A DNA stretch of 64,000 bases from Bacteroidota bacterium (GTDB taxonomy: Bacteria > Bacteroidota > Bacteroidia > B-17B0 > Aurantibacillaceae), in contig JANRJN010000018.1 of the NCBI GenBank assembly GCA_033763945.1, positions 112,475 to 176,474 on the forward strand. Reading direction: 5' to 3'. This document shows positions 3,778 through 64,000 of this stretch, in pieces. The translations under genes were made by a program, and so were the position numbers. A model generated the notes under the pieces. It saw nothing but the letters and a program-made list of their open reading frames with translations, had not been told where the DNA came from and made no database searches. Position 1 is the stretch's first letter, and each line of letters starts with the position of its first letter.

Positions 3778-3875
3778 AATATAAAGTTTCTTTACAATTG
3801 TTACTTTTGTTAAAAAATCTAAAACAAATTTTTACTATATTTAAACATTGGTACATTTGTTGTATACCCAAAACT

Positions 3876-5006
3876 ATGATAAAAAAAACTTTAGTATTAG
3901 CCTTTACTTTTTTAGTTGTGTCTTTTTTTGGACAGAAGCAAATAAGCAAAACATTTAATTTTAAAATTGAAGGAACAATCAGAAATTTTACAGGTAAAAC
4001 TATTTATGTTCATCACAAATGGGATGATAAGGATATAACAGACTCAGCCAAAGTAGTAAATAATAAATTTCAATTTAATTTAAAAAGTGTTGATCCAAAC
4101 ATGTACTGGTTTACCACCACCAACGTGATTTCAGCACAGCCTAATTATATATTTTTTGTTGATGCTGGTACAATTAAAGCTAATTTAATAGGCGACTCAA
4201 TTGCTTATTCAACGGTTGATGGTGGCCAAACTCAAAAAGATTATATAGAGTACCGCCAATTAATAAATTCATTTGTTATGCAACAGCAACAAATGCAAGC
4301 AGATTACAATACTGCTAACCAAGCCGGTGACTTTGCTAAAATGAATGAGATTAAAGAGAAGTACTCAAGCTTAAATGCTTCATACATTGGCGGTCTTAAA
4401 AATTTTGTAAAAACTCACCCAAAAAGTGCCATAAGTGGTTACATCATTTATAATGACTTTAATAATCCAAGTGTACCAATGACTGATGTTATTGAGGCTT
4501 TAAGTTTCGTTGATAAAAGCATAGAAAATACTAAATTTATTAAGTTAGCGCAAGCTCGTGTTGATGCTGTAAAAGGAACGATGGTGGGGTATCCCGCAAA
4601 TAATTTTACTCAAAATACCCCTGAAGGCAAACCCATTAAGTTAAGTGATTACAAAGGAAAAAAAGTAGTATTGGTTGATTTTTGGGCTAGTTGGTGTGGG
4701 CCCTGTCGGATGGAAAATCCGAATGTAGTGGCGGCCTATAATAAGTATAAAGATAAGGGATTTACAGTGTTGGGAGTTTCTTTCGATTCAAGTAAAGAAA
4801 AGTGGGTAGAGGCTATTGCTAAAGATAATTTAACATGGGATCATGTAAGTGACCTAAAAGCTTGGGGAAATGAAGCTGGTAAATTGTATAACATCACAGG
4901 TATTCCTGCCAATGTATTGGTTGATAAGGAAGGTAAAATTATTGGTAAAAACCTACGAGGAGCTGAGTTAGATATGAAATTGGAAGAGTTTTTTAATAAA
5001 AAATAA
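3876..5006 (+). CDS. TlpA/ResA-like thiol:disulfide oxidoreductase (thioredoxin fold)
   Basis: CXXC motif in FWASWCGPC within a C-terminal thioredoxin-like domain. I moved the start from 3798 to the ATG at 3876, which gives the signal peptide MIKKTLVLAFTFLVVSFFG. Confidence 0.8.
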   Translation: MIKKTLVLAFTFLVVSFFGQKQISKTFNFKIEGTIRNFTGKTIYVHHKWDDKDITDSAKVVNNKFQFNLKSVDPNMYWFTTTNVISAQPNYIFFVDAGTIKANLIGDSIAYSTVDGGQTQKDYIEYRQLINSFVMQQQQMQADYNTANQAGDFAKMNEIKEKYSSLNASYIGGLKNFVKTHPKSAISGYIIYNDFNNPSVPMTDVIEALSFVDKSIENTKFIKLAQARVDAVKGTMVGYPANNFTQNTPEGKPIKLSDYKGKKVVLVDFWASWCGPCRMENPNVVAAYNKYKDKGFTVLGVSFDSSKEKWVEAIAKDNLTWDHVSDLKAWGNEAGKLYNITGIPANVLVDKEGKIIGKNLRGAELDMKLEEFFNKK

Positions 5007-5091
5007 ACCTTAATCTTAGTCAGTTATTCTGTATCTTATTAACTTTTCTCAACAAAAAAGTATTAAATTCGTCAAAATTTTAAAAACACAT

Positions 5092-7254: not shown

Positions 7255-8526
7255 ATGAGAACAAAATTAGTTTTACTTTCCGTTATTTTGTTAGCTTTAT
7301 TTTTCTCTTGTGGGGAAAAGAATGATGAGGATGCTTTTCGTAAGGCGGAAGAAAAAAGGATACAAGCGCAATTGAATAATCCAAAACTTGAGTTGTATAA
7401 AGCCATGAAAATTGCTTTACGCTCTACAGCAACGGTGGGTAAAAATCCTGAATTGGATAAAGCCCGACAAAGTATGTTTAATTTAGTTGGGAGTGTTTTT
7501 AAATCAAACGCATCCGACAAATCAGTTGAAATAAATCCATTAGAATTAATTGTTTTTGCTAAAGAAGTTTATGATAGTAAGGAAACGCTTCTGAAAACCG
7601 ACGAAGATTCGTTACCAACTTTATTAGGAAATATTTTTTATTTGTTTACAAATTCGCCTGAAATTAAATCTTCTTATTTTCCTTTTGCTTACAATAATAA
7701 TTCGGAGCATATGATTTTGTCATTACTCTGGCAAACAACTCCTTCTGCACCAAAAGATTTTGCCTTATACGAAATTTATAAATCTAACGAAAACAACATC
7801 AACGATGTAAGCATGAAATTAGTGTATCAATTGTGCAAGTCGTTTGTGTTTTACGAAAATACGTTCTATTATCACTCCTTTGATAAATGTAATGACTATT
7901 TGAAATACATGGAATCCAATAAGGACATGATTTCAAAAACCCCAATCATTAGTGTTGTCGATCAGAATATTGTTGCAAATGAACAAAACTATTATCAACT
8001 GCATGCCATGGGGCTTATTATGCGTGCTTTGAATGAAAGAGAAATGGATAAAGAGAAAGAATCATTAAACGATATGAAATTTTTTTTGGCAGATATGGAA
8101 AAAGGAGGTTTGGATAACGAATTAACATGGCTGGTAAGTGCATATGTGTATGTTAGTGAAGAAGAATATGAGAAGGCCTTACCTGCTTTAGAAAAACTCG
8201 AAAAAAGTAGTATAATAAGTGAGCCGGAAAAACAGGCGATGTCTGAATTAAAGGGGTATATCAAATCCAGAAAAAAAGGCAACGCATTAAATGTTATTAA
8301 CGATAAACTAGCTTTTGGAAAAATTACAGTTAACTTACTCTCAAATAGACTAAAGTCATCAAAACAATTATTAGACTTAGAAAAAAGTAAAGAAGGTAAA
8401 AAGTTAATTCAAGTTCAAGAAGAAATGAACTCTAAAATGAACTATTTGGAGGATACTAATAAATCTTTAAACGTAGATAGCTTAAGTGCGAAAGCAAAAA
8501 ATCTTCTTGATGGCGTACTAAAGTAA
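7255..8526 (+). CDS. Hypothetical lipoprotein
   Basis: Signal peptide with lipobox (LLALFFSCGEK); helical and Lys/Glu-rich; no family recognised. Confidence 0.5.
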   Translation: MRTKLVLLSVILLALFFSCGEKNDEDAFRKAEEKRIQAQLNNPKLELYKAMKIALRSTATVGKNPELDKARQSMFNLVGSVFKSNASDKSVEINPLELIVFAKEVYDSKETLLKTDEDSLPTLLGNIFYLFTNSPEIKSSYFPFAYNNNSEHMILSLLWQTTPSAPKDFALYEIYKSNENNINDVSMKLVYQLCKSFVFYENTFYYHSFDKCNDYLKYMESNKDMISKTPIISVVDQNIVANEQNYYQLHAMGLIMRALNEREMDKEKESLNDMKFFLADMEKGGLDNELTWLVSAYVYVSEEEYEKALPALEKLEKSSIISEPEKQAMSELKGYIKSRKKGNALNVINDKLAFGKITVNLLSNRLKSSKQLLDLEKSKEGKKLIQVQEEMNSKMNYLEDTNKSLNVDSLSAKAKNLLDGVLK

Positions 8527-9720
8527 TTATACTTTTAAGGCTTTTACTTTACTAAATACCAACAATGCCAAAAAAGAAAAGGCTATTGATAAATACCCCA
8601 AAATAGGATAATTGTGTAGTGTTTTATCTTCGCTTTGTATCATAATAAATCCACCAATTAAAGAAGCAATTGATACTGCAAATTGTTGAATAGACGAATT
8701 TAAAATTAAAAAAGCACCACGTATTTGGGGTTCAGCAGTCGAAGTAGTATGCGCCATTGAAATAACCATTCGTGATCCGCTAAACACAAAAAAGCTGGCA
8801 GTAAAACAAAACAATACTAATTTATTATGTGTTTCTAAATTGGGAATACCAATTAATGGAATTAAAGCAAGTATTGAAAGCCCAATTAAAACTTTTTGAC
8901 GCCCAATTTTATCACTTAACTTACCAATTAATGGAGAGAATACTGCAGTTAATAACCCCCCAATAATATAAACAAACGGCACAGTACTGGCATAATCAAA
9001 TTTTAAGTTAAAGGTAAAGTAATCCGTTAAAAACGGAATAATAAAAAAGTGAGAAGGCATTATTACCGCAGTTAATAGTAGCGCCCATCTACGATTTTTT
9101 TCACCCAAAACACTTTTTAAAACACCCATAAAGCTCTGTGGTTTGTATGTTGCCAAATGTCCTGTAAAGGAAGGTACAACAAACAACGCTCCAAAAAATA
9201 CAACCGCACATATACAACCTAAAACAATAAACGGTGTATACCAACTGTAATGTGCGGCCAAAAACAATCCACCAGGTACACCTAAAACACTTGCTAAAGC
9301 AAACCCCATCATTAAAATACCCATAGCTTGTCCTCTGTTTTTTGCAGGAATTGCATCACCTACAATCGATTGAATAATAGAACCCGAAACACCACCAAAT
9401 AAACCGGTTGCAAAACGGGCAATAACTAACATAATATAATTAGGAGCTAAACCACAACAAAAAGTACCAATCGTAAACCCGGCATAAATAAATATTAATA
9501 CCTTTTTTCTGTCGTATCTATCAACTTTATTAACGCAGATTAAAGACGATAAAAATGCCCCAAATCCGTATGCAAAAACTGCAATGCCAAATTGTTGAGG
9601 GTTTATTCCCCACATTTCCGTTAACTTGGGTTTAAGTGGCATTAAAATCATAAAATCTACAATTCCAGTAAATTGAACAAAAGCTAGAATTAACAAGAGT
9701 ACCACATCAGAACGCTTCAT
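8527..9720 (-). CDS. MFS transporter
   Basis: 397 aa with about 12 hydrophobic helices and an MFS-type TM2-TM3 loop (VDRYDRKKVL). Confidence 0.8.
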   Translation of the reverse strand: MKRSDVVLLLILAFVQFTGIVDFMILMPLKPKLTEMWGINPQQFGIAVFAYGFGAFLSSLICVNKVDRYDRKKVLIFIYAGFTIGTFCCGLAPNYIMLVIARFATGLFGGVSGSIIQSIVGDAIPAKNRGQAMGILMMGFALASVLGVPGGLFLAAHYSWYTPFIVLGCICAVVFFGALFVVPSFTGHLATYKPQSFMGVLKSVLGEKNRRWALLLTAVIMPSHFFIIPFLTDYFTFNLKFDYASTVPFVYIIGGLLTAVFSPLIGKLSDKIGRQKVLIGLSILALIPLIGIPNLETHNKLVLFCFTASFFVFSGSRMVISMAHTTSTAEPQIRGAFLILNSSIQQFAVSIASLIGGFIMIQSEDKTLHNYPILGYLSIAFSFLALLVFSKVKALKV

Positions 9721-40571: not shown

Positions 40572-41639
40572 ATGTTAGAGATGGAAGATAACACAAGCAC
40601 AACTTTACAAAGTAGCACAGTTACAATTAATTTGCAACAACTTACCTTGCCATGCCAATTGTTGAGCGCCAGTAGTTGTGCATATGATATTGAGAATAAA
40701 TCTGGCATCTACCCAAAACCTTTTTCTAACCCAAACTCGGCAAAGGCAATTGGTTGGCACGAAAATATACCCACAGTTGTTGTAGGAGGAATTGATAACG
40801 TTAATGCCGCATTGGTAGGAGTGATACAAAATTTAAACGTGCAAGGTAAGCCTACTTCTTCTATTGTTATTGCTTTTCAAGGTACTTTGGCCGCTAACAA
40901 TGTTAGAGGCATTATTGATTGGATGACAGATTTTTTTGCCAAGCCTGTTCCTTTTCTATTGGCTAAAGAAGGGGCAATGGTGCACGAAGGACTTTACTAT
41001 TCGGTAAATAGTATTTTGCCAAAGCTTAAACACGTGATAGATGATTTAAAACAAAAACATGCGGGTAACGATTTACCCATTTATATTACTGGTCATAGTA
41101 AAGGTGGCGGTATGGCAAGTATTTGCGCCGCTATGTTGGCAGCCGATTATAAGATAAAAGGTGTTTACACTTTTGCGTCGCCAATGATAGGCAATGCAGG
41201 CTTTGTAGCTAATTTTCCGACACAAATACCGGTCATCCGTTTCGAAAATTATTTAGACATTGTTCCCTTTTGTGCGCCCTCTGAGGCCTTTGTGCGTAGT
41301 TTATTAATTGCTGCGCTTAATTACCCGGAGTTTGCAGAGGATTTAAAAGTGTTTATAGACATCATTCAATTATCGGGAGATAAAAATGGTGCTTGGGGAT
41401 ATGTGCCTTTGGGGCAATTACATTACATTAAAAAAAATGGTACACTAGAAATCATTAGCTATCCGCCTTATGCCCCTAACGAAAGCGCTTTAGAAATTGC
41501 CTATACCCTGGCAAGCGGCGAAAGTGGTTTTAAGCGGGTAGCAGCTGCGCATGCCCATGGTTGCAGTAGTTTAGTAAACACTGTTTTTGTACCCGGTTAC
41601 CAGAACAGTGTTTGCAAAAACTCAGGTTTGTGTAAATAA
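40572..41639 (+). CDS. Class 3 lipase-like alpha/beta hydrolase (paralog 1)
   Basis: Nucleophile elbow ITGHSKGGGMA (GxSxG) with flanking VIAFQGT...DWMTDF, as in the Lipase_3 family. No signal peptide. Ends in GLCK. Confidence 0.7.
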   Translation: MLEMEDNTSTTLQSSTVTINLQQLTLPCQLLSASSCAYDIENKSGIYPKPFSNPNSAKAIGWHENIPTVVVGGIDNVNAALVGVIQNLNVQGKPTSSIVIAFQGTLAANNVRGIIDWMTDFFAKPVPFLLAKEGAMVHEGLYYSVNSILPKLKHVIDDLKQKHAGNDLPIYITGHSKGGGMASICAAMLAADYKIKGVYTFASPMIGNAGFVANFPTQIPVIRFENYLDIVPFCAPSEAFVRSLLIAALNYPEFAEDLKVFIDIIQLSGDKNGAWGYVPLGQLHYIKKNGTLEIISYPPYAPNESALEIAYTLASGESGFKRVAAAHAHGCSSLVNTVFVPGYQNSVCKNSGLCK

Positions 41640-42076: not shown

Positions 42077-43099
42077 ATGCTAGCAAAAATAAATTTACCC
42101 TGCCAGTTATTAAATGCCTGTGCCTGCACTTACGATATTGTAGATAATACAAAAACTTACAATCCTGAATCTCTTTATGCAGATACAATTGGCTGGGGCT
42201 TAGGACCCGGAGCACCAACTGTAATTACGGGTCAAAACGAAAAGTATTATGATGCCGCTTTGGTTGGCATTGTTCAAAATTTACATGTGAATAATACAGT
42301 TGCTCCAGGCATTGTTATTGCTTTTCAGGGAACAATAAGTGTTACAACACCCGGAGGGTTAAAAGATTGGATGACAGATTTTGATGCTACGCCTGTTCCT
42401 TTCATAGAAGGCAAGACCGGCGATCTGGTGCACAAAGGCATTTACGATTCGGTAAAAAGTATACTATCACAAATATTACAAGCGCTTAGTACATTACAAA
42501 ATGCCAACAATTCATTACCAATTTTTGTAACCGGGCATAGTAAAGGGGGTGGTATGGCACCAATAGCAGCAGCTATTTTAATAAACAAATACAAGTATGT
42601 AATTCAAGAGGTGTATACGTTTGCCGCACCAATGATAGGCAATGCAAGTTTTGGGGCTAATTTTCCATTAAATAAGCCCGTACAACGTTTTGAAAATTAT
42701 ATTGACATCATTCCCTTTTTAATGCCTAACGATACTTTTATAAGTACGTTAAGAACTGCGGCAAATAATGCTACTCCTATCCATAAAGTTGAAATGGATT
42801 TGTTTATTGATTTTTTATTAACTGTGCGCAATAAATTTAGTGCCACAGGTTATGTGCCTTTGGGGAATTTAAATTTTATTAATGAGAACAGAACCATAAC
42901 GGTTACCTCATTTCCCCCTAACACACCTAACCCAAGTGCAATTGATTTGGCAAGTAAATTAGCAAGCGGTTTACCGGGCTTTGTAATTGTGGGCAATGCC
43001 CACAGTCATGCTTGTGGCAGTAAAGTAACAACAAATGGTATTAATTATTTTATGGGCTATATGGGCGGCGTTGCTAATCACATGGGCTTGTGTAAATAA
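42077..43099 (+). CDS. Class 3 lipase-like alpha/beta hydrolase (paralog 2)
   Basis: VTGHSKGGGMAP nucleophile elbow. Collinear with the 40572 protein (LPCQLL.A..C.YDI, VIAFQGT, DWMTDF, RFENY.DI.PF, GYVPLG, ending GLCK). Confidence 0.7.
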   Translation: MLAKINLPCQLLNACACTYDIVDNTKTYNPESLYADTIGWGLGPGAPTVITGQNEKYYDAALVGIVQNLHVNNTVAPGIVIAFQGTISVTTPGGLKDWMTDFDATPVPFIEGKTGDLVHKGIYDSVKSILSQILQALSTLQNANNSLPIFVTGHSKGGGMAPIAAAILINKYKYVIQEVYTFAAPMIGNASFGANFPLNKPVQRFENYIDIIPFLMPNDTFISTLRTAANNATPIHKVEMDLFIDFLLTVRNKFSATGYVPLGNLNFINENRTITVTSFPPNTPNPSAIDLASKLASGLPGFVIVGNAHSHACGSKVTTNGINYFMGYMGGVANHMGLCK

Positions 43100-44227: not shown

Positions 44228-45916
44228 ATGAGAACAGAAATTATTTCTAACGGCTTTTTTAAAGCCAAAGCATACGCCGGCACATATGTAGTCGTTTTGG
44301 CGTGGGATGTTGATAATTCGGACAATTCACTTATCAAAGATCTTCTAGGTTTTGCAATCGAAAGGGCAGAAGTTGAGGGGGATGTTGAAATTGAAAAATA
44401 CCCGATGAAGGGCATTAAGCGATTTAAAGATAAGGATAAAGGTCTTGCGCCCGGCACACCCGTTTCTACTTTTGAACACCCCGTACAGACCTTTCAATGG
44501 TGCGATTATACGGCTAAAGAAAACAAAGAATATATATACACGATAACGCCACTGTATGGAACTCCAAAAAACCTAAAATCAAATAATGAAAATAAAATTT
44601 CACTAAAAGTTAAAACTGAAGCGGTTATTGGAGCTCAACACAATGGTACTATTAAGCATGACATTTTTTTTAACAGAGGTGTTATTGGTTCTCAGGCATA
44701 TGCAAGAGAATTTGGAAATGCTGAACCTAACCGCGAAGCCCCAGAATCAAGCGAAATGAAATGGTTGTCAAGGGGCTTATTTGAAGCGTTATCTGATTTT
44801 ATTGGGATGGCAAAAAATGAAAACTTCGGTTTAAGAGCTGCTTTTTATGAGTTTCATTATTTACCAATAGCAATGAGTTTTGCAAAATCTGTTGAAGCAG
44901 GTGCAGATGTTAAAATTGTTTACGATGCAGAAAGTTCTTACAAAGAAGAAAATAAAAAAACCATTGATAAAGCTGGCCTTAGCGAAGCGGGTATAACAAT
45001 TCCCAGAACTGTTTCTGAAGGAATCAGGCATAATAAATTTATTGTACTTCTCGAAAACGAAAAACCTATTGCTGTATGGACCGGTTCTACAAACATATCG
45101 GCAGGCGGCATTTTTGGACATTCTAATGTGGGCCACATAATATGGGATAAAGATATTGCAGAACAATATCACGACTATTGGAAAAGATTATCCGAAAATT
45201 TAACTTCAACTAAAATCAGACCGCTAAATAAAGAAGCAACTCCAACTCCGGCCAAGAAACCTAAAAAAAACAGTATTACACCTCTTTTTAGCCCTAGGGA
45301 TGGAAAAGAAGAAAATGAAACATTAGAATGGTACGCCAAACTAATGGATAGCGCTGAGAAAATTATGTGTATTACTTTAGCTTTTAATTTAGATGAGGCT
45401 TTTCAAAATGTTATTAAAAAAGAAAACGATGTTTTAAGATACATCGTTAAAGATGATAATTTGGGCGCCAATGAAGATATTGGCACAGACAAAGATGTGA
45501 TATTTGCCTCCGGTGGTTATTTCGGAAAAAATTCATTGTTTAATTTTTTGCAAGAAAGGGATAATCCATTAAATACCAACGATTATATACACAATAAGTT
45601 TATGCTTGTTGACCCATTGAGTAACGACCCCATTGTTGTTACAGGATCCGCCAATTTTAGCCGGCCATCCCAAAGAATAAACGATGAAAATATGGTTGTA
45701 ATAAGAGGAAATACCAGGGTTTCTGATATTTATTTTGGTGAATTTTTGAGAATATTTGATCATCATTACGCACGGTACATTAGCCGTAAACTACAGCAAG
45801 AAAACAAAAACGACCCAAATGCAGGTTACTTAAAGACAGACAATAGCTGGACAAAATTACATTTCGACACTAACAGTTATAAATATAAAAGAAAAAAATA
45901 CTTTATAAACTCCTGA
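44228..45916 (+). CDS. Phospholipase D-superfamily (HKD) protein
   Basis: Two HKD-type blocks: IRHNKFIVLL...WTGSTNISAGG and IHNKFMLVDP...VTGSANFSRPS. The roughly 130-aa N-terminal beta domain is unassigned. Confidence 0.8.
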   Translation: MRTEIISNGFFKAKAYAGTYVVVLAWDVDNSDNSLIKDLLGFAIERAEVEGDVEIEKYPMKGIKRFKDKDKGLAPGTPVSTFEHPVQTFQWCDYTAKENKEYIYTITPLYGTPKNLKSNNENKISLKVKTEAVIGAQHNGTIKHDIFFNRGVIGSQAYAREFGNAEPNREAPESSEMKWLSRGLFEALSDFIGMAKNENFGLRAAFYEFHYLPIAMSFAKSVEAGADVKIVYDAESSYKEENKKTIDKAGLSEAGITIPRTVSEGIRHNKFIVLLENEKPIAVWTGSTNISAGGIFGHSNVGHIIWDKDIAEQYHDYWKRLSENLTSTKIRPLNKEATPTPAKKPKKNSITPLFSPRDGKEENETLEWYAKLMDSAEKIMCITLAFNLDEAFQNVIKKENDVLRYIVKDDNLGANEDIGTDKDVIFASGGYFGKNSLFNFLQERDNPLNTNDYIHNKFMLVDPLSNDPIVVTGSANFSRPSQRINDENMVVIRGNTRVSDIYFGEFLRIFDHHYARYISRKLQQENKNDPNAGYLKTDNSWTKLHFDTNSYKYKRKKYFINS

Positions 45917-45923
45917 AAAAATA

Positions 45924-45942
45924 ACGGAGCTAACCGAAAATC
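45924..45942 (+). promoter_or_regulatory. Cassette-leader motif, copy 2 (partial)
   Basis: ACGGAGCTAACCGAAAATC lies 28 nt before the ATG at 45970. The 3' half (AATGAATACG) is degenerate. Confidence 0.4.
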
Positions 45943-45969
45943 TAATAATGAATACGTATAAAAAAACAA

Positions 45970-46452
45970 ATGGAACCAATTAAAGGAATTAAAGACGAGC
46001 TTTTAAGATTATTGGAAGAAGCAGAAGAAGAATATCTTAATTGGTATACTTCAAGAAGCACTTATAGTAAATGGCTTTGGCACATTTTACTAATATTGGC
46101 AATATTGCCTGGTTTTATAACAGGCGTAATAGCTGCATATGGTGAAAAAAGTATTTTTAATAGAGATTGGTTGGTTTGGTTACCAATAGGTGGTTCCTTT
46201 GCAGGAACTTTATTAACGCAATTCAAAATTTACGACGTCTGGAAAATTCGTGAGGATGGTCGTATTGCATTTGAAGGCTTTATAAATTTAATACGTGGTC
46301 GAATAAGTTTAGTTAATACGCCGGATGAACTTGGAAAAATTTATTTCGACTTACAACAAGGGATTAACGACATTGAAACGGATGCCCTTCAAAAATTCTT
46401 TATACTATCAAGCTCAGAATTTGTGGCAAAGTTTCAAAAAGTAACACCTTGA
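45970..46452 (+). CDS. 2-TM protein, SLATT/DUF4231-like
   Basis: N-terminal helix (EEEYLNWYTSRSTYSKW), two TM helices, then KIYDVWKIREDGRIAFEGFI. This is the W...R...E-type helix seen after TM2 in the DUF4231/SLATT family. Confidence 0.45.
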   Translation: MEPIKGIKDELLRLLEEAEEEYLNWYTSRSTYSKWLWHILLILAILPGFITGVIAAYGEKSIFNRDWLVWLPIGGSFAGTLLTQFKIYDVWKIREDGRIAFEGFINLIRGRISLVNTPDELGKIYFDLQQGINDIETDALQKFFILSSSEFVAKFQKVTP

Positions 46453-47659: not shown

Positions 47660-47692
47660 ACGGAGCTAACCGAAAATCCGATAAAGAGTAGG
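47660..47692 (+). promoter_or_regulatory. Cassette-leader motif, copy 3 (full)
   Basis: ACGGAGCTAACCGAAAATCCGATAAAGAGTAGG. CGGA/TCCG can pair around a 12-nt loop. GAGTAGG ends 14 nt before the ATG at 47707. Confidence 0.5.
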
Positions 47693-47706
47693 TGAAAAAA
47701 TAGCAA

Positions 47707-49603: not shown

Positions 49604-49636
49604 ACGGAGCATGCCAAAAATCCGATAAAGAGTAGG
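49604..49636 (+). promoter_or_regulatory. Cassette-leader motif, copy 4 (full)
   Basis: ACGGAGCATGCCAAAAATCCGATAAAGAGTAGG. CGGA/TCCG can pair around a 12-nt loop. GAGTAGG ends 16 nt before the ATG at 49653. Confidence 0.5.
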
Positions 49637-49652
49637 CACAAAAAAAACAGTT

Positions 49653-50300
49653 ATGTCATTAGTATCAAGAAAAGAATTTGAACGTTTGTACTCAGCAGAG
49701 TTATTGCCGGCATCCGGCGAAAATTATTCAATTGGCGATATTTGGGATTGGGAGGGACTTATTAACCAAAAGTTGGTGTTTAGGTTTGAGAGCGTTACCG
49801 ACGTAGTTATGAACGAGGAGTTAAAACAAAAACTTAAAAACATACCCCTGGTGCAGGGTAATTTACCGGAGGTTGACATGACCTCTGACATTAAAATTGA
49901 TGCCGGTGCCGCCATACCTGTTTTAAAAGACATTAATGTGGGCAATAATTTAGATGTGAAAAGCATTGTAAAATTTAGTTTTGGCAATGTAATGAGCAAA
50001 AATATTTTAGACTACCGCATGGATTTTAACAGAGAACTGGAAAAACTGAAAAACCAAAATTTTGACAAGTACAAAGAAAAAATACGCAATTACGAAGTAG
50101 TAATGCAGTATTGGTATGCGGGCAGTGTAAATTTGGTGGTAGACAAAACCGTGGGCGATACCGCCAATATAAAAGCAAAAATACAGGGCATGGGGCTGGA
50201 ATTTAAAAGCGATGTAACAACCGATAATAAAGAAACCATAAGCATAAAAACCTCTAAAGCACCGTTTGCAGCACAGTTTATGAAAGGCAGGGATTTGTAA
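49653..50300 (+). CDS. Hypothetical beta-rich cytoplasmic protein (speculatively gasdermin-like)
   Basis: 215 aa with no TM helix or signal peptide. Beta-strand-like segments flank one Lys/Glu-rich helix (NRELEKLKNQNFDKYKEKIRNYE). The CDS call is sound; the fold assignment is only a guess. Confidence 0.5.
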   Translation: MSLVSRKEFERLYSAELLPASGENYSIGDIWDWEGLINQKLVFRFESVTDVVMNEELKQKLKNIPLVQGNLPEVDMTSDIKIDAGAAIPVLKDINVGNNLDVKSIVKFSFGNVMSKNILDYRMDFNRELEKLKNQNFDKYKEKIRNYEVVMQYWYAGSVNLVVDKTVGDTANIKAKIQGMGLEFKSDVTTDNKETISIKTSKAPFAAQFMKGRDL

Positions 50301-50382
50301 CAAACAATTTTAAGTAAGTACAAACGCTTACAAACGGATATGTGGCGCCTAGCGACTAGTTAGCGGTCACCTTATAAAGACA

Positions 50383-51420
50383 ATGCAAGAAACGAACGAC
50401 ATATTAAACCTTAAAGTTTCCTTCCAAGAAAATACTTGGACAGATGTTTCTTTAATTGAGCCAACAATTAAAAACGTTTTAGATTCTCAGAAATCTGACA
50501 AATACAAACAGCAGGTAACAAATTTAAGAACCAACCTTGACAAAGGAAATACAGACTATTATAACGAGAATAAAAAGCGTTTACCGGCAGTTACGTTTAG
50601 TGCAACTTTTAATTCAAGCAGGACAAGGGAAAACGTAAAATATTACAATAGTCTCATTGTTCTGGACATTGACAAACTTAATCCTGAACAAATTGAAATC
50701 TGCTACAAGCAGCTTCTTCAAGACGATTTTGTTTTTTCTTTTTGGCGTTCACCATCAAATAAAGGCTTTAAGGGACTTGTTCAGTTAGAATTTATAGACA
50801 TTTCTGACGAAATAGACCTTGACACAAAACACAAAAGTGCCTTTAAGAAATTATCAAACTATTTTCAGAATACATACAATTTAGAACTTGACAAAAGCGG
50901 AAGCGACATTAGTCGCTTGTGTTTTCTTTCTTACGACACTGAACTCGTAAGAAAAGAAACATCTAAAAAGTTTCAAGTTTCAAATGATGACATCAAGGCA
51001 ATTGCACCGAAAACAAATAACGGAAGGACAAGAAAAATTAAGTTTGTGAGCAACAGAGATGCTTTATTCAATCCATTAGAAAGAAACAACCAATATGATA
51101 GAAAATTGATGACGGATATTATTCGTTATTTAACAAATAAAAACTTGTCAATTACTTTTTCTTATTCTGAATGGTGTAGAGTTGCTATGGCGATAGCTAA
51201 TACATTCACTTACGATATTGGGCTAAATTATTTTACAAAATTGAGTAAATTGGACGGAGCAAAATTCAATGAAATTCATTGCACGAATTTTTTAATTAAT
51301 TGCTACGAAACAAAAAATGGTAATGTAACTTTTGCAAGTATAATTCACTTAGTAAATCAAAAAGGATATAAAACAAAACAACAAAAAATAAAGGAAGGGG
51401 TTCTGAAGGTGGAGAGTTAA
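50383..51420 (+). CDS. AEP primase-polymerase-like protein (VirE_N/BT4734-like N-domain plus PriCT-like C-domain)
   Basis: LPAVTFSATF...SLIVLDIDKL (DxD), FWRSPSNKGFKGLVQLE (sPSGkG-like) and SDISRLCFLSYDTELV, then a C-terminal helical YSEWCRVAMAIAN region. No helicase or P-loop domain. Confidence 0.65.
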   Translation: MQETNDILNLKVSFQENTWTDVSLIEPTIKNVLDSQKSDKYKQQVTNLRTNLDKGNTDYYNENKKRLPAVTFSATFNSSRTRENVKYYNSLIVLDIDKLNPEQIEICYKQLLQDDFVFSFWRSPSNKGFKGLVQLEFIDISDEIDLDTKHKSAFKKLSNYFQNTYNLELDKSGSDISRLCFLSYDTELVRKETSKKFQVSNDDIKAIAPKTNNGRTRKIKFVSNRDALFNPLERNNQYDRKLMTDIIRYLTNKNLSITFSYSEWCRVAMAIANTFTYDIGLNYFTKLSKLDGAKFNEIHCTNFLINCYETKNGNVTFASIIHLVNQKGYKTKQQKIKEGVLKVES

Positions 51421-51496
51421 ATCTTCGCAAGTATCACTGTCATCAACGGTTAAGCACAACCCGACAGCTTAAAAAGTGCACGACATTATATGTCAG

Positions 51497-51504
51497 TATC
51501 TTTG
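51497..51504 (+). promoter_or_regulatory. Candidate -7 promoter box for the RT gene
   Basis: TATCTTTG matches TAnnTTTG and ends 5 nt before the first ATG (51510). This would favour the ATG at 51552 as the real start. Confidence 0.3.
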
Positions 51505-51509
51505 TCAAT

Positions 51510-53339
51510 ATGCGAGCAATCGCTTTACAGGAACCCTTTCCTTTTTTTATTATGAGAACATTTGAAAGTTATTTTAGCGAAAATGAAATCTTGAAATTAG
51601 TTTGCAAGGTTCGTGTTAAACTTGCTAAGAACAAGTCCAAGAAGCATTTATTGCATTTGTTAACTTCAAACCCTGCTTTCAATTATCACGTTAAATTCAA
51701 CTCTGAACCCGAAAACGATTTTGAACAAAATCAAAAAGAACTTTCGGAGTTTTTATTGTCAATTTTGCCCCCAAGAAAAAAATGGTTGAAATTGGGCGAA
51801 GATTCAAGAAGAAAGCCCAACAGTAAAAATGAATTTCTTACTTCAAACGACAAAAATTATTATAGCCTATTAAAAACGATAAAAGCAGAAAGTAAAAAAG
51901 CTGTTAAAGCTAATTGGTATATCAACTTACAGAAATTTATAAACGACATTATTGTTGTTTCTAAAGGCAATGAATACGAAGTTTCAAAACCAATCATTTT
52001 CCCAAAACTAAAAGATAAAATAAAACAAGAAGGGAAAAATGAATGTAGACCTATTTGCATTTACAGTTTGAAAGACCGTATTATTTTAAGCCTGACAAAT
52101 AAATTTTTGACAAGAGTTTTTGATGAGCAATTTCAAGATAGTTCTTATGCGTTTAGAGCAAAGAGAAATTCACAAGGGAACATTATCTCGCATCACGATT
52201 GTATTGTCGGCATTGGAAATTATAGAAACGCAAATGCAAACAGCAAATTATTTGTAGCAGAATGTGATATGAAAAAATTTTATGACACAGTAAATCATAA
52301 AATTGCTTGGCATTTGTTTCAATCTTTGTCAGAAACAGCAAAAGCAACTTACGCAGAACTCAATTTTGAATCGCCAATCAAAATATTTAATAGTTACTTA
52401 AACAGCTTTGCTTTTAACATTGATATTCCAAAAGAAACAGACACTGCATATTGGACATCATATAAAATTCCAAATGGTTTTTTTGGTTGGATTGACGAAG
52501 CAACTATAAATATTCACTATACTGATATTTGTGTCGAAAGAATAGGAATTCCACAAGGCGGAGCACTTTCGGGGCTAATTGCAAACATCTATCTAAATCA
52601 AGCCGACATAGAATTGAAAAAAATCGATGTGTTTTATCAGCGTTTTTGTGATGATATGATAATTATTGCCAAAGATTTTTACACTTGCGATACAGCAAAA
52701 AATGCTTATGAAGTTGAGTTGAAAAAATTAAAATTGTTTCCTCACAAATTCAAAAGCACCAACGAATTAAAAGAGACAACTATTGGAAAAACAAAACTAT
52801 CAAAGTTTTGGGAAGGAAAATCAAAAGGACCTTACAAATGGGGAAAAGTTGAAGACAATGCTTTCCCTTGGATTGGTTTTGTTGGCTATGAAATGGATTA
52901 TTTAGGAAACATTCGTGTTCGCAAAAAATCATTGTTAAAAGAACTTGCTAAACAAAAAACGATAATTCGTGAAATCAAGAATGCTGTAAAAGAAGGAATG
53001 CGAAAACCTAAAGGGACAGCGACTGAATCTGCAATAAACAGACTTATTGGAATGTCAGTTGGCAGAATTGGGCTTGACAATTTTGACGAAGTATCAACTG
53101 ATATGTGTTGGAAAAACGGGTTTAGAGAATTGACAGTAAACAAGCATTCAAAAGGACAAATAAAGCAATTGGACAGAAATCGAAGTAAACACTATTACAA
53201 GTTACTCAAAGAATTAGAAGAACCGGAATTAGAGTTTGACGAAGACGAAGAGAATGAAAAAAGAAAATATGTAAAGTATGACAAACCTTTTAGTTACTAT
53301 CATCAAATCATTGAACGACAAAGAAAGGCGAACCGCTAA
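51510..53339 (+). CDS. Stand-alone reverse transcriptase (unclassified; alternative start 51552)
   Basis: RT motifs in order: RPICIYSLKDRIILSLTNKFL (1/2), CDMKKFYDTVNH (A), GIPQGGALSGLIANIYLN (B), YQRFCDDMIIIA (C, xxDD at about 52644-52655), LKLFPHKFK (D) and FPWIGFVGYEMD (E). It has a roughly 170-aa N-terminal and a roughly 140-aa C-terminal extension. Confidence 0.85.
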   Translation: MRAIALQEPFPFFIMRTFESYFSENEILKLVCKVRVKLAKNKSKKHLLHLLTSNPAFNYHVKFNSEPENDFEQNQKELSEFLLSILPPRKKWLKLGEDSRRKPNSKNEFLTSNDKNYYSLLKTIKAESKKAVKANWYINLQKFINDIIVVSKGNEYEVSKPIIFPKLKDKIKQEGKNECRPICIYSLKDRIILSLTNKFLTRVFDEQFQDSSYAFRAKRNSQGNIISHHDCIVGIGNYRNANANSKLFVAECDMKKFYDTVNHKIAWHLFQSLSETAKATYAELNFESPIKIFNSYLNSFAFNIDIPKETDTAYWTSYKIPNGFFGWIDEATINIHYTDICVERIGIPQGGALSGLIANIYLNQADIELKKIDVFYQRFCDDMIIIAKDFYTCDTAKNAYEVELKKLKLFPHKFKSTNELKETTIGKTKLSKFWEGKSKGPYKWGKVEDNAFPWIGFVGYEMDYLGNIRVRKKSLLKELAKQKTIIREIKNAVKEGMRKPKGTATESAINRLIGMSVGRIGLDNFDEVSTDMCWKNGFRELTVNKHSKGQIKQLDRNRSKHYYKLLKELEEPELEFDEDEENEKRKYVKYDKPFSYYHQIIERQRKANR

Positions 53340-53341
53340 CA

Positions 53342-53453
53342 GCACCTACAAGAAATTGGCGGTTCAGTGGTTAAATGAAGCATTGTGCTTCGTATCAAGT
53401 TCAGTACTGGCAGACAGTTTAGTGCTTCGAAATCGCCAATTTCTTGTAGCTGC
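53342..53453 (+). ncRNA. Candidate structured RNA/DNA element closed by a 16-bp perfect inverted repeat
   Basis: CTACAAGAAATTGGCG (53346-53361) is the exact reverse complement of CGCCAATTTCTTGTAG (53434-53449), and 3 more pairs follow one mismatch. The 72-nt interior holds the hairpin GAAGCA-ttg-TGCTTC (53377-53391) and two direct-repeat units (GTTCAGT...GTGCTTCG twice). It starts 3 nt after the RT stop. Confidence 0.45.
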
Positions 53454-53483
53454 AAACCGTTATTAAAAATTAACATAAGTAAT

Positions 53484-53930
53484 ATGGATTCAACTAACAA
53501 AGAACTTCCCCTTACTTCAAAAACTTATTTTTTAAAACAGGGGCAAAGCATAAGCAAGCTATATGCTTTAATAAATCATAACGTGTTAACACATCGCTTA
53601 AAAAAATGGTTTTCTGTATTAATAGAGCTAATTTTATATGTTTTGTTTTTATTGGGGGTTTCAATCAGTATTACTATTCCAACCAATATTAACTTATTTA
53701 TAGCAGGTAACGATGATACCAGTTTAACCGGTACTATTAACAATGAAGATTTTTATATTGTGATGTTATGTATCAAATTAGTTATTTTTCTCATTTCGTT
53801 ACCTATTTTGTTTTTTGCAATTGTTTTGATGCGTAACCGAAAAAAAAACAATTTAATACATAAAGTATTTTCAGAAGTAAAGGAAATGAAAGAAACATTT
53901 AATAAGGCATTAACAGATTTAAATTTATAA
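53484..53930 (+). CDS. 2-TM membrane protein (paralog of 37682-38164)
   Basis: The start is moved to the ATG at 53484 because the track ORF start at 53385 lies inside the inverted repeat. Two TM helices and a basic post-TM2 segment (MRNRKKNNLIHKVF). Confidence 0.55.
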   Translation: MDSTNKELPLTSKTYFLKQGQSISKLYALINHNVLTHRLKKWFSVLIELILYVLFLLGVSISITIPTNINLFIAGNDDTSLTGTINNEDFYIVMLCIKLVIFLISLPILFFAIVLMRNRKKNNLIHKVFSEVKEMKETFNKALTDLNL

Positions 53931-53991: not shown

Positions 53992-54055
53992 ATGGAGTAA
54001 CCCAAAAAGCCATAAAATGAGTAGGGGGCGATAACCGAAAAGCCAAAAGAGTAGG
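53992..54055 (+). promoter_or_regulatory. Cassette-leader motif, copies 5a and 5b (tandem)
   Basis: ATGGAGTAACCCAAAAAGCCATAAAATGAGTAGG (53992-54025) and GGCGATAACCGAAAAGCCAAAAGAGTAGG (54027-54055). The stems TGG/CCA and GGC/GCC replace CGGA/TCCG. The ATG at 54074 lies 18 nt downstream. Confidence 0.5.
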
Positions 54056-54073
54056 ATTAAAACAAAAATTATT

Positions 54074-61191: not shown

Positions 61192-61748
61192 CCCTGTCAT
61201 TTCGAGTAGGATTTGCGTCTCTTTTCAAATCCGTATCGAGAAATGAGATGCACTTCTCGATACGCTTCGCTACTCGAAGTGACAAGTAAATCTCGATACG
61301 CTACGCTACTCGAAGTGACAAGTACGTTTCGATACACTTCGCTACTCAAAGTGACAAGTAATGTTAGAAGGTGAAAATATACGGCTTGCTTTAAAAAATA
61401 ATTGCCCTGTCATTTCGAGTAGGATTTGCGTCTCTTTTCAAATCCGTATCGAGAAATGAGATGCACTTCTCGATACGCTCCGCTACTCGAAGTGACAAGT
61501 AAATCTCGATACGCTCCGCTACTCGAAGTGACAAATAATGTTAGAAGGTGAAAATATACGGCTTGCTTTAAAAAATAATAACCCTGTCATTTCGAGTAGG
61601 ATTTGCGCCTCTTTTCAAATCCGTATCGAGAAATGAGATGCACTTCTCGATACGCTCCGCTACTCAAAGTGACAAGTAAATCTCGATACACTTCGATACT
61701 CGAAGTGACAAGTACGTTTCGATACACTTCGCTACTCAAAGTGATAAG
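61192..61748. repeat. Tandem array of three composite nested-palindrome repeat units
   Basis: Units start at 61192, 61405 and 61582 with CCCTGTCATTTCGAGTAGGATTTGCG.CTCTTTTCAAATCCGTATCGAGAAATGAGATGCACTTCTCGATACGCT.CGCTACTCGAAGTGACAAGTA. Each is followed by 1-2 extra TCTCGATAC...CTACTCGAAGTGACA half-units. Confidence 0.85.
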
Positions 61749-61870
61749 GAAATTTAAAATTAAGGCCTATTCTTTTATATTAAATAAACAAGATTAAAAC
61801 TATTAATAAATTACTTTTTTTTTTCTTTACAAAAACCACAATTTTATTACTTTTAATGGTTTATTGAACT

Positions 61871-64000
61871 ATGAAAATTTCTTATAATTGGCTTAAAACC
61901 ATAATAAATACAGACCTTTCTGCTCAAGAAGCAGCAGATTATTTAACCGCGTCAGGTCTTGAAGTAGAAGGTGTTGAAACGTTTGAATCTTTAAAAGGAG
62001 GCTTAAAAGGCCTTGTAGTTGGTCAGGTTTTAGAATGCTCTAAACACCCCGATGCAGACAAATTGAGTTTAACAAAAGTAGATGTTGGTACCGGCGAACC
62101 TCTTCAAATTGTATGTGGTGCGCCAAACGTTGCTGCTAATCAAAAGGTAATTGTAGCTTTGGTGGGTTGCATGTTGTATCCTTCAACCGGCGAGCCTTTT
62201 GAAATTAAAAAATCTAAAATACGTGGTGCAGTAAGCGAAGGTATGCTTTGCGCAGAAGACGAAATTGGTTTGGGAGCAAGCCATGCAGGGATTATGGTGT
62301 TGCCTGAAAATACACCGGTAGGGTTACCAGCCGCAGATTATTTTAAAATTGAAAACGATACAATTTTAGAGATTGGTTTAACCCCCAATCGTAGCGATGC
62401 TGCGTCGCATTTAGGCGTAGCCCGTGACTTAGCCGCTATTATCAATTCTAGAAATACAGAAAATTCGCTTCAGATCTCTATCAATGGTATGAAGCCTTTA
62501 CCGGAAGCAACGAATTTGAACAAAGTGCAAGTAACAGTTCAAAATCCAGAAGCCTGTAAACGTTACTCCGGTATTGTAATTAGTGGTATTACGGTTAAAG
62601 CTAGTCCTGATTGGTTACAAAATCGCTTAAAAGCAATTGGTTTACGCCCCATAAACAACATTGTTGACATTACCAATTTTGTATTGCACGAAATGGGTCA
62701 GCCGCTTCACGCCTTTGATTTGGAAAAAATTCCAGGAAATAACATCATTGTTAGAACGGCGAATGAAGGTGAGAAATTTGTAACCTTAGATACTGTTGAA
62801 CGAACTTTAACTGCAAGTGATTTGGTAATTTGTAATGAACTTGGTCCAATGTGTTTGGCCGGGGTATTTGGAGGATTGGAGAGTGGAGTAGGAGAGGGTA
62901 CAACTTCCATCTTTTTAGAGAGTGCTTATTTTGATGCAGGCTTTGTGCGTAAAGCTTCTAAGCATCATGGATTAAAAACAGATGCGTCTTTTCGTTTTGA
63001 AAGAGGAACCGATCCAAACATTACGGTTGATGCGTTAACCCGCGCTGCAAATTTAATTTTTGAATTGGCAGGTGGTGTGTTAAGTATGGAAGTGTTGGAT
63101 ATTTATCCTGAAAAATTAGTGCCATATAAAGTTGCATTTTCTTATAATGACTGCGATGCTTTAATTGGTAAGGAAATTGAGAGAGCTACTATAAAATCAA
63201 TATTAACCAATTTAGGAATTGAAATTGAAAACGAGGGGAACGATGCGTTGCTGTTAAATGTTCCTCGTTACAAAACCGATGTTACCCGTCAGGCCGATGT
63301 GATTGAAGAAGTCATGCGCATTTATGGTTACAACAATGTGGAAGTGAGTAAAGAGATTTCGTACACTGCTTTTAACGAAGCAAAAAATGTGGATATCATC
63401 GTTGAAAATAAAGTAGCAACTGCTTTAGAAGGTTTTGGTTTTAACGAAATAATGAGTCTGTCATTAACCAAAGAAACTTATTACCCTCAGGTAAATACTA
63501 ATGTAAAAGTAGTAAATCCCTTAAGCAACGATTTAAATGTGTTGCGTGGCGATATGATTTACAGTGGCTTGGAAGCTATAGCATATAATAGCAATCGTAA
63601 AAATGCAGATTTAAAATTATTTGAAATTGGGAGAACTTATTCTCAAATTGAAAGTGAAACGTATAAATATGCCGAACAAAAGCACTTGACTGCATTTGTA
63701 ACCGGAAATGTCTTCTCAGAAAATCCTTTTGGATTAAATCAAAAGACCGATTTAAATTATTTAAAAACTGCAGTAATTAATGTGTTAAATAAATGCGGTG
63801 CTAATAATTTAAAAAGTACCGAAAGCACTTATGAAAATTTTGAATACGGTTTAACATATACTTTAAACAATAAAGTCATTGCGCAAATGGGTTGTGTAAA
63901 TAAAGCTACTTTGAAAAAGTTTGACATCAATCAACCTGTGTTTTATGCGGATGTTAATTGGGAAGTATTGGTAAAAGCATTTGCCAAACAAAACATACAG
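61871..64000 (+). CDS. pheT: Phenylalanine--tRNA ligase beta subunit, N-terminal part (3' end outside window)
   Basis: MKISYNWLKTIINTDLSAQEAADYLTASGLEVEGVE...VLECSKHPDADKLSLTKVDVG...IVCGAPNVAANQKV...IRGAVSEGMLCAEDEIG. The frame stays open to the window end. Confidence 0.9.
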   Translation, partial: MKISYNWLKTIINTDLSAQEAADYLTASGLEVEGVETFESLKGGLKGLVVGQVLECSKHPDADKLSLTKVDVGTGEPLQIVCGAPNVAANQKVIVALVGCMLYPSTGEPFEIKKSKIRGAVSEGMLCAEDEIGLGASHAGIMVLPENTPVGLPAADYFKIENDTILEIGLTPNRSDAASHLGVARDLAAIINSRNTENSLQISINGMKPLPEATNLNKVQVTVQNPEACKRYSGIVISGITVKASPDWLQNRLKAIGLRPINNIVDITNFVLHEMGQPLHAFDLEKIPGNNIIVRTANEGEKFVTLDTVERTLTASDLVICNELGPMCLAGVFGGLESGVGEGTTSIFLESAYFDAGFVRKASKHHGLKTDASFRFERGTDPNITVDALTRAANLIFELAGGVLSMEVLDIYPEKLVPYKVAFSYNDCDALIGKEIERATIKSILTNLGIEIENEGNDALLLNVPRYKTDVTRQADVIEEVMRIYGYNNVEVSKEISYTAFNEAKNVDIIVENKVATALEGFGFNEIMSLSLTKETYYPQVNTNVKVVNPLSNDLNVLRGDMIYSGLEAIAYNSNRKNADLKLFEIGRTYSQIESETYKYAEQKHLTAFVTGNVFSENPFGLNQKTDLNYLKTAVINVLNKCGANNLKSTESTYENFEYGLTYTLNNKVIAQMGCVNKATLKKFDINQPVFYADVNWEVLVKAFAKQNIQ

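Follow-up and report, generated by a model that had tools for sequence, protein, structure and literature searches.

A UG39-type primase-polymerase and reverse transcriptase with a candidate structured RNA on a putative attC-bounded gene cassette of a Bacteroidota bacterium

DRT2, DRT9 and DRT10 are antiphage systems built around a reverse transcriptase (RT), and in all three the template RNA is encoded directly 5' of the RT gene. DRT9 uses this upstream non-coding RNA (ncRNA) as its template and primes synthesis from a C-terminal tyrosine (PMC12483538). The authors of the DRT10 study expect ncRNA templates in other Class 2 systems as well, and according to a recent paper the RNA templates of most UG systems are still uncharacterised. 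Closest of all to the locus described here is UG39 (formerly UG28b), which Mestre et al. 2022 placed in Class 2 and defined by a cluster 64 partner with VirE at its N-terminus and PriCT-2 at its C-terminus, i.e. as a system of two genes for which no RNA was reported (PMC9226505); our literature search found UG39 in no other relevant paper. The locus in question, which encodes a primase-polymerase (PrimPol) and an RT, lies in a stretch of 64,000 nucleotides (nt) of a Bacteroidota bacterium (Aurantibacillaceae; assembly GCA_033763945.1, contig JANRJN010000018.1, positions 112,475 to 176,474 of the forward strand), which is referred to below as the window.

Overall, our analysis makes it probable that positions 50360–53459 of the window are a gene cassette carrying a UG39-type system of PrimPol, a structured RNA of 131 nt and RT, that the strong inverted repeat behind the RT gene is an attC-like recombination site, and that the genes on either side have nothing to do with this system. 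A first-pass annotation had listed four open reading frames (ORFs) on the + strand—49653–50300 (215 amino acids, aa), 50383–51420 (345 aa), 51510–53339 (609 aa) and 53484–53930 (148 aa)—together with an inverted repeat, all of which we recovered at the same positions, and had taken them for an undescribed RT system of five parts. The latter did not hold up, as the RT and the primase turned out to be a UG39 pair and the flanking genes to be absent from 55 loci encoding related RTs. Co-orientation and tight spacing also lost their value as signs of a single unit: every gene of the window from ~17.5 kb to ~61 kb lies on the + strand, and the co-orientation of the five elements is therefore uninformative on their linkage. 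The cassette and its boundaries comprise the following features.

50359–50365, + strand: left cassette junction GTTAGCG, an R'-type core from an upstream recombination event, with a putative crossover between G50359 and T50360
50383–51420, + strand: AEP-type PrimPol, the UG39 partner (PADLOC RTasVirE-PriCT2, Pfam)
51421–51551, + strand: conserved structured non-coding element, candidate UG39 ncRNA (covariance model R2, covariation)
51552–53339, + strand: UG39 RT of 595 aa (PADLOC RT_UG39; longest ORF from 51510)
53334–53465, + strand: attC-like recombination site, the inverted-repeat RNA element of the first-pass annotation (model R1, R'/R'' complementarity)

The PrimPol–RT pair and its relatives

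The RT aligns end to end with the PADLOC profile RT_UG39 (E-value 7.1e-202, 670 bits, model positions 2–540 of 541), with Drt2 as the second-best PADLOC profile at 85 bits. In Pfam it matches RVT_1 alone (residues 173–419), i.e. no further known domain is fused to it, which is a trait of Class 2, and in NCBIfam it matches RT families only, all of them below threshold. Assigned by profile, this RT, which had been considered unclassified, is a UG39 member of the Class 2 UG/Abi enzymes, in agreement with the previous suggestion of a defence-associated lineage. It is not a retron RT either: retron RT profiles score far below UG39 (NCBIfam retron_St85_RT reaches 26 bits against a cutoff of 235) and no Rfam retron RNA was matched. 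A sequence search of solved structures returned matches to RT cores only, and none for PrimPol.

The FCDD catalytic box that had been read by eye is indeed present, and D253 as well as C380-D381-D382 are conserved among the homologues; altogether, the catalytic residues are intact in both the RT and PrimPol across 34–48 homologues. In the C-terminal tail of the RT, Y590 and K592-P-F-S-Y596 are invariant in 17 sequences. Alignment of the homologues also moved the start of the gene. The conserved start codon is the ATG at 51552, i.e. M15 of the long ORF that begins at 51510; M15 is invariant and the homologues are ~591–597 aa long, and therefore the RT has 595 rather than 609 residues and positions 51510–51551 are non-coding.

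PrimPol matches the PADLOC profile RTasVirE-PriCT2 over its full length (3.9e-127, 422 bits) and consists, according to Pfam, of BT4734-like_N (1.4e-26) and PriCT_2, with no helicase domain. A primase-like protein with a DxD and an sPSxkG-like motif and without a helicase had been recognized in the first reading of the sequence, and these motifs are DID and SPSNKG, respectively. Residues D95, D97, S123-P-S125, G128, K130, G131, H150 and D185 are conserved to at least 95% in 48 homologues.

How constant the association of the two genes is was assessed in the 55 genomic loci mentioned above, which encode RTs of 31–94% identity, come mostly from Bacteroidota, with some from Proteobacteria, Ignavibacteria and others, and were each compared with flanks of 6 kb. 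PrimPol is found immediately 5' of the RT in nearly all of the ~51 loci that have flanking sequence, at RT identities of 33–85%, and on the same strand in all paired loci but one (L051). Only the three most distant RTs (31–34% identity) are without it, and the pair also occurs on a spirochaete plasmid, where the RT is 37% identical. Thus, the primase-like gene and the RT gene do belong together, as had been supposed, and by sequence the locus formed by them falls into UG39, a class that is known but has not been characterised by experiment. The RT family was found on one plasmid and in none of 50,697 phage records, as would be expected of a system on the host side.

The spirochaete plasmid, pSpe of Thiospirochaeta perfilievii, deserves a separate remark. 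Its UG39-like RT (3839–5598 of this locus) is annotated as two coding sequences, a 'hypothetical protein' and a 'reverse transcriptase domain-containing protein', which suggests a frameshift or a mis-called start, and 5' of it lie genes for a BT4734-family PrimPol and an ATP-binding protein.

The structured element between PrimPol and RT

In almost every locus, the PrimPol and RT genes are separated by 100–150 nt that are strongly conserved and contain visibly covarying stems. A covariance model (R2) built from an alignment of 26 loci finds exactly one match per locus in 46 loci, always on the + strand between PrimPol and RT, including at least nine strong matches in loci that had not contributed to the seed, and nowhere else in 708 kb. 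The arrangement PrimPol–RNA–RT is thus conserved across the loci. With position 1 corresponding to 51421 and all features on the + strand, the element in the window comprises the following parts.

17–21 with 43–47: helix P1
28–31 with 38–41: helix P1b
34–37 with 56–59: probable pseudoknot
62–65 with 71–74: helix P3 (tentative)
73–80: near-invariant block UCAGUAUC
92–95 with 100–103: helix P4
104–116: block UUUACAGGAACCC, followed by a U-rich tail that extends to the RT ATG

In the model-fitted alignment, all 17 base pairs show compensatory changes, 87% of the cells are standard-paired compared with at most 60% when the partners are slid, and the covariation score is 0.438 as against 0.165 after shuffling. 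In an alignment made by MAFFT, which is blind to structure, compensatory changes are seen in 10 of the 17 pairs, 84% of the cells are paired compared with at most 49% for slid partners, and the score is 0.352 as against 0.179; with either alignment, none of 500 shuffles reached the observed score. P1, P1b and P4 are well supported also in the structure-blind alignment, in which they are paired to 95%, 85% and 89%, respectively. The pseudoknot, in which the P1b loop would pair with the segment after CUUAAAA, beats all cross-pairings (0 of 2000 in a permutation test).

The 131-nt element matches no Rfam family and was not found in the literature searched. Model R2 does not detect it in the spirochaete plasmid locus nor in L035–37, L045–46, L049 and L051–54; visibly related variants, however, are present in L035–37 and in the Pedobacter group. 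What stays invariant across divergent subfamilies is YCAGUAU. We also considered whether the invariant CAGTATCTTTG block is a −7 promoter box, which in Bacteroidota reads TAnnTTTG. This candidate was ranked below an RNA, as several subfamilies drop TTTG and keep CAGTAT (L004, L008, L009, L039, L031, L033 and the Pedobacter group).

Taken together, the conservation and covariation of this element point to it, and not to the inverted repeat, as the likely cognate RNA of UG39. The first-pass annotation was therefore right in making a structured RNA part of the RT unit, since a conserved element does lie between PrimPol and RT, but it had assigned this role to the wrong sequence.

Some variants of the element are worth recording in their own right. 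L009 (5892–6036) carries a tandem duplication (CAGTATCAGTATCAATAGTC) in the near-invariant RNA core, and L008 and L039 have CAGTATCAATAGTC in place of CAGTATCTTTGTC there; this variation falls where a template or an RT-binding core would be expected. In L001 (29–153), a contig of 1980 nt from Algoriphagus alkaliphilus that encodes the closest RT (94% identical), the RNA retains its 3' half, but unrelated sequence stands in the place of the 5' half. There is no room for PrimPol on this contig, which may reflect either truncation of the system or a break in the assembly.

The attC-like site, the cassette and its neighbourhood

The inverted repeat begins 3 nt past the RT stop codon, spans 112 nt and includes 16 perfect base pairs, exactly as had been described; its arms of 23 nt (53342–53364 and 53431–53453) are 91% complementary. 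Folded as RNA it reaches −48.2 kcal/mol (z = −5.76), and none of 200 shuffled sequences was as stable. Its interpretation as an RNA specific to the RT, however, is contradicted by its distribution: it follows only ~10 of 52 UG39 RTs—the other ~40 loci have neither the site nor the form of a cassette—and it reappears among unrelated genes, where it marks cassette boundaries. A covariance model (R1) was built from five copies, with compensatory changes at 17 of the 29 pairs of the stem; it finds several copies per locus, all on one strand and at the 3' ends of unrelated genes (four in L003, three each in L014 and L006, and two in L028). All of the more than 15 copies open with ...YTAAC, which contains the stop codon of the preceding gene, and close with AAACC-GTTRRS, and the stem between these ends covaries. 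In the window, the parts outside the arms are as follows.

53334–53340, + strand: R'' CGCTAAC, which holds the RT stop codon
spacer, + strand: CAAACC
53459–53465, + strand: R' GTTATTA, with a putative crossover after G53459

With a length of 132 nt (...CGCTAAC ... GTTATTA), AAC/GTT termini and a co-oriented position 3' of an ORF, the site has the properties of an attC palindrome, which is ~57–141 nt long. The other end of the cassette is marked by an exact GTTAGCGGTCACCT 10 nt before the PrimPol ATG, and the same motif precedes PrimPol in ~12 other loci. The left junction GTTAGCG is the exact reverse complement of the R'' CGCTAAC at the RT stop codon. This agreement between left junction and R'' extends over 7 of 7 positions in the window as well as in L006, L013, L024, L028 and L003 (the latter after removal of an intron), so that even the freely varying seventh base agrees in all six. 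Moreover, in L006 (twice) and in L003, where it has the unusual form GTTATGG, the R' of a site is exactly reverse-complementary to the R'' of the following one. All seven positions agree as well in two cassettes other than those of PrimPol and RT, the one with GTTATGG included, and in L014 a change from AAC to AAT is mirrored by one from GTT to ATT. Finally, the nucleotide homology between the window and six other loci begins at 50359/50360, and it ends at 53461–53463 in L028 and L011. From the junctions and these breakpoints it follows that the mobile unit would be 50360–53459, with PrimPol, RT and the site inside and both flanking genes outside. As in gene cassettes, the bases after G|TT at the start are complementary to the R'' at the end, and both boundaries lie at breaks of homology. 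Sequence comparison thus argues for a single mobile gene cassette of 3.1 kb with the inverted repeat as its attC-like recombination site. Its base composition has no distinct signature.

The cargo of the arrays in the other loci is of a kind typical for cassettes and includes genes for an AAA ATPase, an RNase T and a thioredoxin-family protein as well as a Gp49/HigB-HTH toxin-antitoxin pair. In L003, a group II intron in antisense orientation (RF02001, 118 bits; RF00029) interrupts the site after the RT gene, and its removal restores CCGCTA|ACACGGG; attC-specific group IIC introns behave likewise in that they insert into attC sites (PMC3001079). Upstream of the same array, a tyrosine recombinase was considered as a possible integron integrase and rejected: it is Xer-like, stays with 182 bits below the TIGR02249 cutoff of 265, is matched in two pieces and adjoins an IS91 Y2 transposase. 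These two features of L003 are located as follows.

7806–9718, − strand: group II intron encoding an RVT_1+GIIM protein, which separates the RT from the attC-like site
2050–4025, 5' of the array: IS91-type Y2 transposase (0.7 kb upstream) and Xer-like tyrosine recombinase

The genes next to the cassette in the window do not accompany UG39 elsewhere. None of the 55 UG39 loci encodes a homologue of the 215-aa, 148-aa, 156-aa, 72-aa, 480-aa or 200-aa protein. The 148-aa protein with two transmembrane segments (2-TM protein) is an orphan with a single relative among 5.8 billion clusters, which is located on a contig of 782 nt; it shows a weak match to the PADLOC '2TM effector' (E 4e-4) and none to SLATT. 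The family of the 215-aa protein comprises 15 clusters, and its members have other neighbours, with different downstream genes and no RT. The 215-aa and 2-TM proteins had been counted as parts of the RT system; with co-occurrence in 0 of 55 loci, their genes rather appear to be unrelated neighbours outside the cassette.

By its predicted fold, the 215-aa protein may be gasdermin-like: the structure is predicted with a pLDDT of 88.5 and a pTM of 0.85, and its top five matches in the PDB are all bacterial gasdermins (7n52, 7n50; E 1.5e-5, probability 1.0, TM ~0.5). Bacterial gasdermins usually come with a neighbouring protease that activates them and with an inhibitory peptide at the C-terminus that can be cleaved off. 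With 215 aa the protein is shorter than typical bacterial gasdermins, no protease is adjacent to it in the window, and among three homologous loci a Trypsin_2 protease is nearby in one (L060), where it is encoded two genes 3'; a patatin gene is located 5' in two of them (L056 and L060).

The accessory island around the cassette starts with tandem paralogous class-3 lipase genes (Lipase_3/Mbeg1-like; 40572–41639 and 42077–43099). At 44228–46452 it encodes a PLD-family protein of 562 aa (PLDc_2; its DrmC/ZacB-like PADLOC matches are weak) and, behind it, a membrane protein of 160 aa with two helices that matches SLATT_1 weakly (E 2e-4), and these two may be a separate nuclease-plus-membrane defence pair. 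Rfam DUF805b-type motifs occur at 47660–47694, 49604–49638 and 54025–54057 (37.5, 37.6 and 33.6 bits, with a gathering score of 35.6), and each consists of a short hairpin and then AAAGAGUAGG, 13–16 nt before the start codons of the 480-aa, 215-aa and 156-aa ORFs, respectively. The motif appears to be a 5' leader common to these unrelated genes of the island, and PrimPol and the 2-TM gene are without it. With its gasdermin-like, PLD and SLATT-like proteins the context is defence-like, but these are separate units and the argument from them is circumstantial. The last 2.8 kb of the window (61200–64000) contain no complete ORF of at least 80 aa on either strand and no Rfam match at the gathering threshold; as ORFs that continue past the end of the window were not included in the list, a long gene may begin there.

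Rival readings, a possible mechanism and comparison with known systems

A number of observations weigh against the picture of a UG39-type PrimPol–RNA–RT cassette. In the RNA, helix P3 shows no compensatory changes in the structure-blind alignment, and only some members of the family show the pseudoknot clearly. The near-invariant block reads TATCTTTG in many loci, which we take to resemble the −7 box of Bacteroidota promoters, and the U-rich tail could be a translation-initiation region, such that part of the conservation would be regulatory. At the recombination site, the stems show two conserved 1×1 mismatches instead of the bulged extrahelical bases of a canonical attC. No second copy was found when the window was searched with model R1 from 27 to 64 kb with filters off. 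There was also no integron integrase or tyrosine recombinase among the window ORFs scanned and no integrase in the 6-kb flanks of the loci. Moreover, the prediction of a defence function for UG39 was graded inconclusive by Mestre et al. (PMC9226505).

Could the intergenic element therefore be a cis-regulatory region, i.e. a promoter with a structured 5' leader for RT expression, rather than an RNA that is bound by the RT as template or scaffold? Its position directly 5' of the RT start, its U-rich end and the TATCTTTG variant of its core would all suit such a role, but it is YCAGUAU and not TTTG that persists across the subfamilies, helices far 5' of any plausible transcription start covary strongly (with P1 paired to 95–98%), and all characterised Class 2 relatives encode a template ncRNA directly 5' of the RT. 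Because of the first two of these points in particular we rank the regulatory explanation lower and think it unlikely. Less likely still, and in our estimation quite improbable, is that the repeat is not an integron-type attC but a REP/MITE-like element, a shared terminator or an IS91-type rolling-circle end. The missing integrase, the unbulged stems and the Y2 transposase beside the array in L003 are what could be cited for this. IS91 occurs in one locus only, however, whereas the copies, without exception in the same orientation, sit at the 3' ends of ORFs with the stop codon inside ...TAAC, keep their AAC/GTT termini while their stems covary, match from one site to the next even in the rare GTTATGG, and agree at both ends of the PrimPol–RT cassettes including the mirrored AAT/ATT variant. 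Toxin-antitoxin cargo and the intron insertion, which is of the kind known from attC sites, also speak against it. In Bacteroidota, both integrons and attC clusters that lack an integrase have been described, and off-target insertions of cassettes are among the cases known (PMC8618304). We thus read the element as working like the attC site of a cassette, either of an integrase-less cluster (CALIN) or of a single off-target cassette, and do not call the region an integron. As no second copy of the site is present, the window holds no array; and since it contains just one site and no integrase, the cassette probably arrived through an integron-type integrase that acted at a secondary GTT site. 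The stretch from the stop codon of the 215-aa ORF to GTTAGCG (50301–50358, 59 nt) does not form a convincing attC fold, which is likewise read as secondary-site insertion.

Two further alternatives concern the system as a whole. PrimPol, RNA and RT could be a selfish module for replication or maintenance of a mobile carrier, which, for instance, copies the excised single-stranded cassette. The combination of a primase-polymerase with another polymerase is typical of replication, some members of the family do travel in cassettes, and the defence-island score of UG39 is inconclusive. Yet most UG39 loci are not cassettes at all, the family was found in none of the 50,697 phage records and on only one plasmid, its nearest characterised relatives DRT2, DRT9 and DRT10 are all antiphage, and the neighbours in the window are defence-like, which together make a selfish module very unlikely. 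We give hardly any credence to the five-part model, in which the repeat RNA would serve as template or scaffold, the 2-TM protein as membrane effector and the 215-aa protein as a further component. It could appeal to the close spacing and common orientation of its elements, to a repeat that folds far better than its shuffled versions, to the weak '2TM effector' match and to the ncRNAs and membrane effectors of other DRT and retron systems. Against this stand an orientation that is shared by the whole island and hence carries no information, the lack of both flanking proteins in all 55 UG39 loci and the orphan status of one of them, a repeat that follows a minority of UG39 RTs and also accompanies unrelated genes, and a homology to other loci that stops exactly at the cassette junctions and leaves the flanking genes outside.

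If the UG39-type cassette with its own intergenic RNA is taken as the basis, a mechanism may be outlined by analogy. As in DRT2, DRT9 and DRT10, the RT would bind the adjacent ncRNA as scaffold and template and make repetitive or defined cDNA after phage infection, and this synthesis may be primed, as in DRT9, from the invariant C-terminal tyrosines Y590/Y596. PrimPol would then prime or synthesise the complementary strand or otherwise process the RT product, and the effector would be this DNA product and not a membrane protein. The full proposal is that UG39 is a tripartite PrimPol–ncRNA–RT immune system with a mechanism that is new among the DRTs, in which the RT copies a segment of the 131-nt RNA, possibly with tyrosine priming, PrimPol primes or makes the second strand, a defined double-stranded DNA acts as effector without a membrane or nuclease partner, and the whole circulates as an integron-type cassette in Bacteroidota. 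We put this forward tentatively, as a possibility that we consider rather doubtful in this complete form.

Of the characterised systems, DRT9 (UG28; RT with an upstream ncRNA and protein-primed poly-dA synthesis; PMC12483538) belongs to the nearest lineage, as UG39 was split from UG28. Both have a structured ncRNA directly 5' of the RT, conserved C-terminal tyrosines in the RT and U-rich tracts in the RNA. DRT9, however, contains no PrimPol, its ncRNA has a poly-U template loop as a class trait, and the intergenic RNA described here is shorter, differs in sequence and structure and belongs to no Rfam family; with 78 bits on the Drt9 profile versus 670 on that of UG39, the RT is not a DRT9 enzyme either. 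DRT10 (UG17; RT, ncRNA and a SLATT effector) is alike in combining a Class 2 RT with a cognate ncRNA, and its SLATT partner resembles the membrane effector that had been envisaged in the 2-TM protein. The latter, however, gave no match to SLATT and accompanies the RT in none of the 55 loci, and the RT reaches just 67 bits on the RT_UG17 profile, which places the locus outside DRT10. DRT7 (UG10) also unites an RT with AEP-type primase chemistry in one system, but it belongs to Class 1, carries a fused PrimS-type domain and performs untemplated or protein-templated synthesis, whereas the locus described here combines a separate PrimPol of the VirE/BT4734 type with a Class 2 RT and an RNA.

With attC/CALIN cassettes, the unit and the arrays of its relatives share the palindrome of ~130 nt, the AAC...GTT termini at the 3' end of an ORF, a G|TT-type crossover, R'/R'' complementarity across each cassette, toxin-antitoxin cargo and an antisense group II intron in one of the sites, and the lone copy in the window fits an off-target insertion. 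Differences are the lack of IntI and attI in the DNA seen here, the two conserved mismatches in the place of bulged bases, an asymmetric spacer (a single nt 5' as against the 5 nt AAACC 3') and the Bacteroidota hosts. Defence systems are carried as integron cassettes (10.1101/2024.07.02.601686; 10.1101/2024.07.02.601719), and the integron-defence preprint consulted makes no mention of a 3.1-kb two-gene RT cargo like that of the window. An RT-based system as an attC-bounded cassette in Bacteroidota would thus extend the idea of integrons as a 'defence biobank' to RT systems and to a phylum with little-studied integrons. It also calls for caution, since a strong hairpin right after an RT gene may be a recombination site and not the RNA of the RT.

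Finally, UG39 itself, as described by Mestre et al. 2022 (PMC9226505), agrees with the window in its RT profile from end to end, in the stand-alone PrimPol directly 5' of the RT and in the absence of any domain fused to the latter. The published system, however, consists of two genes and no RNA, whereas the structured RNA between PrimPol and RT and the attC-bounded cassette packaging of part of the family appear to be new. For a UG/Abi group that has been named but never studied, PrimPol, a structured RNA of 131 nt and RT thus emerge as the minimal conserved unit, no effector gene travels with it, and the covariance model and exact coordinates for the RNA make UG39 directly testable.

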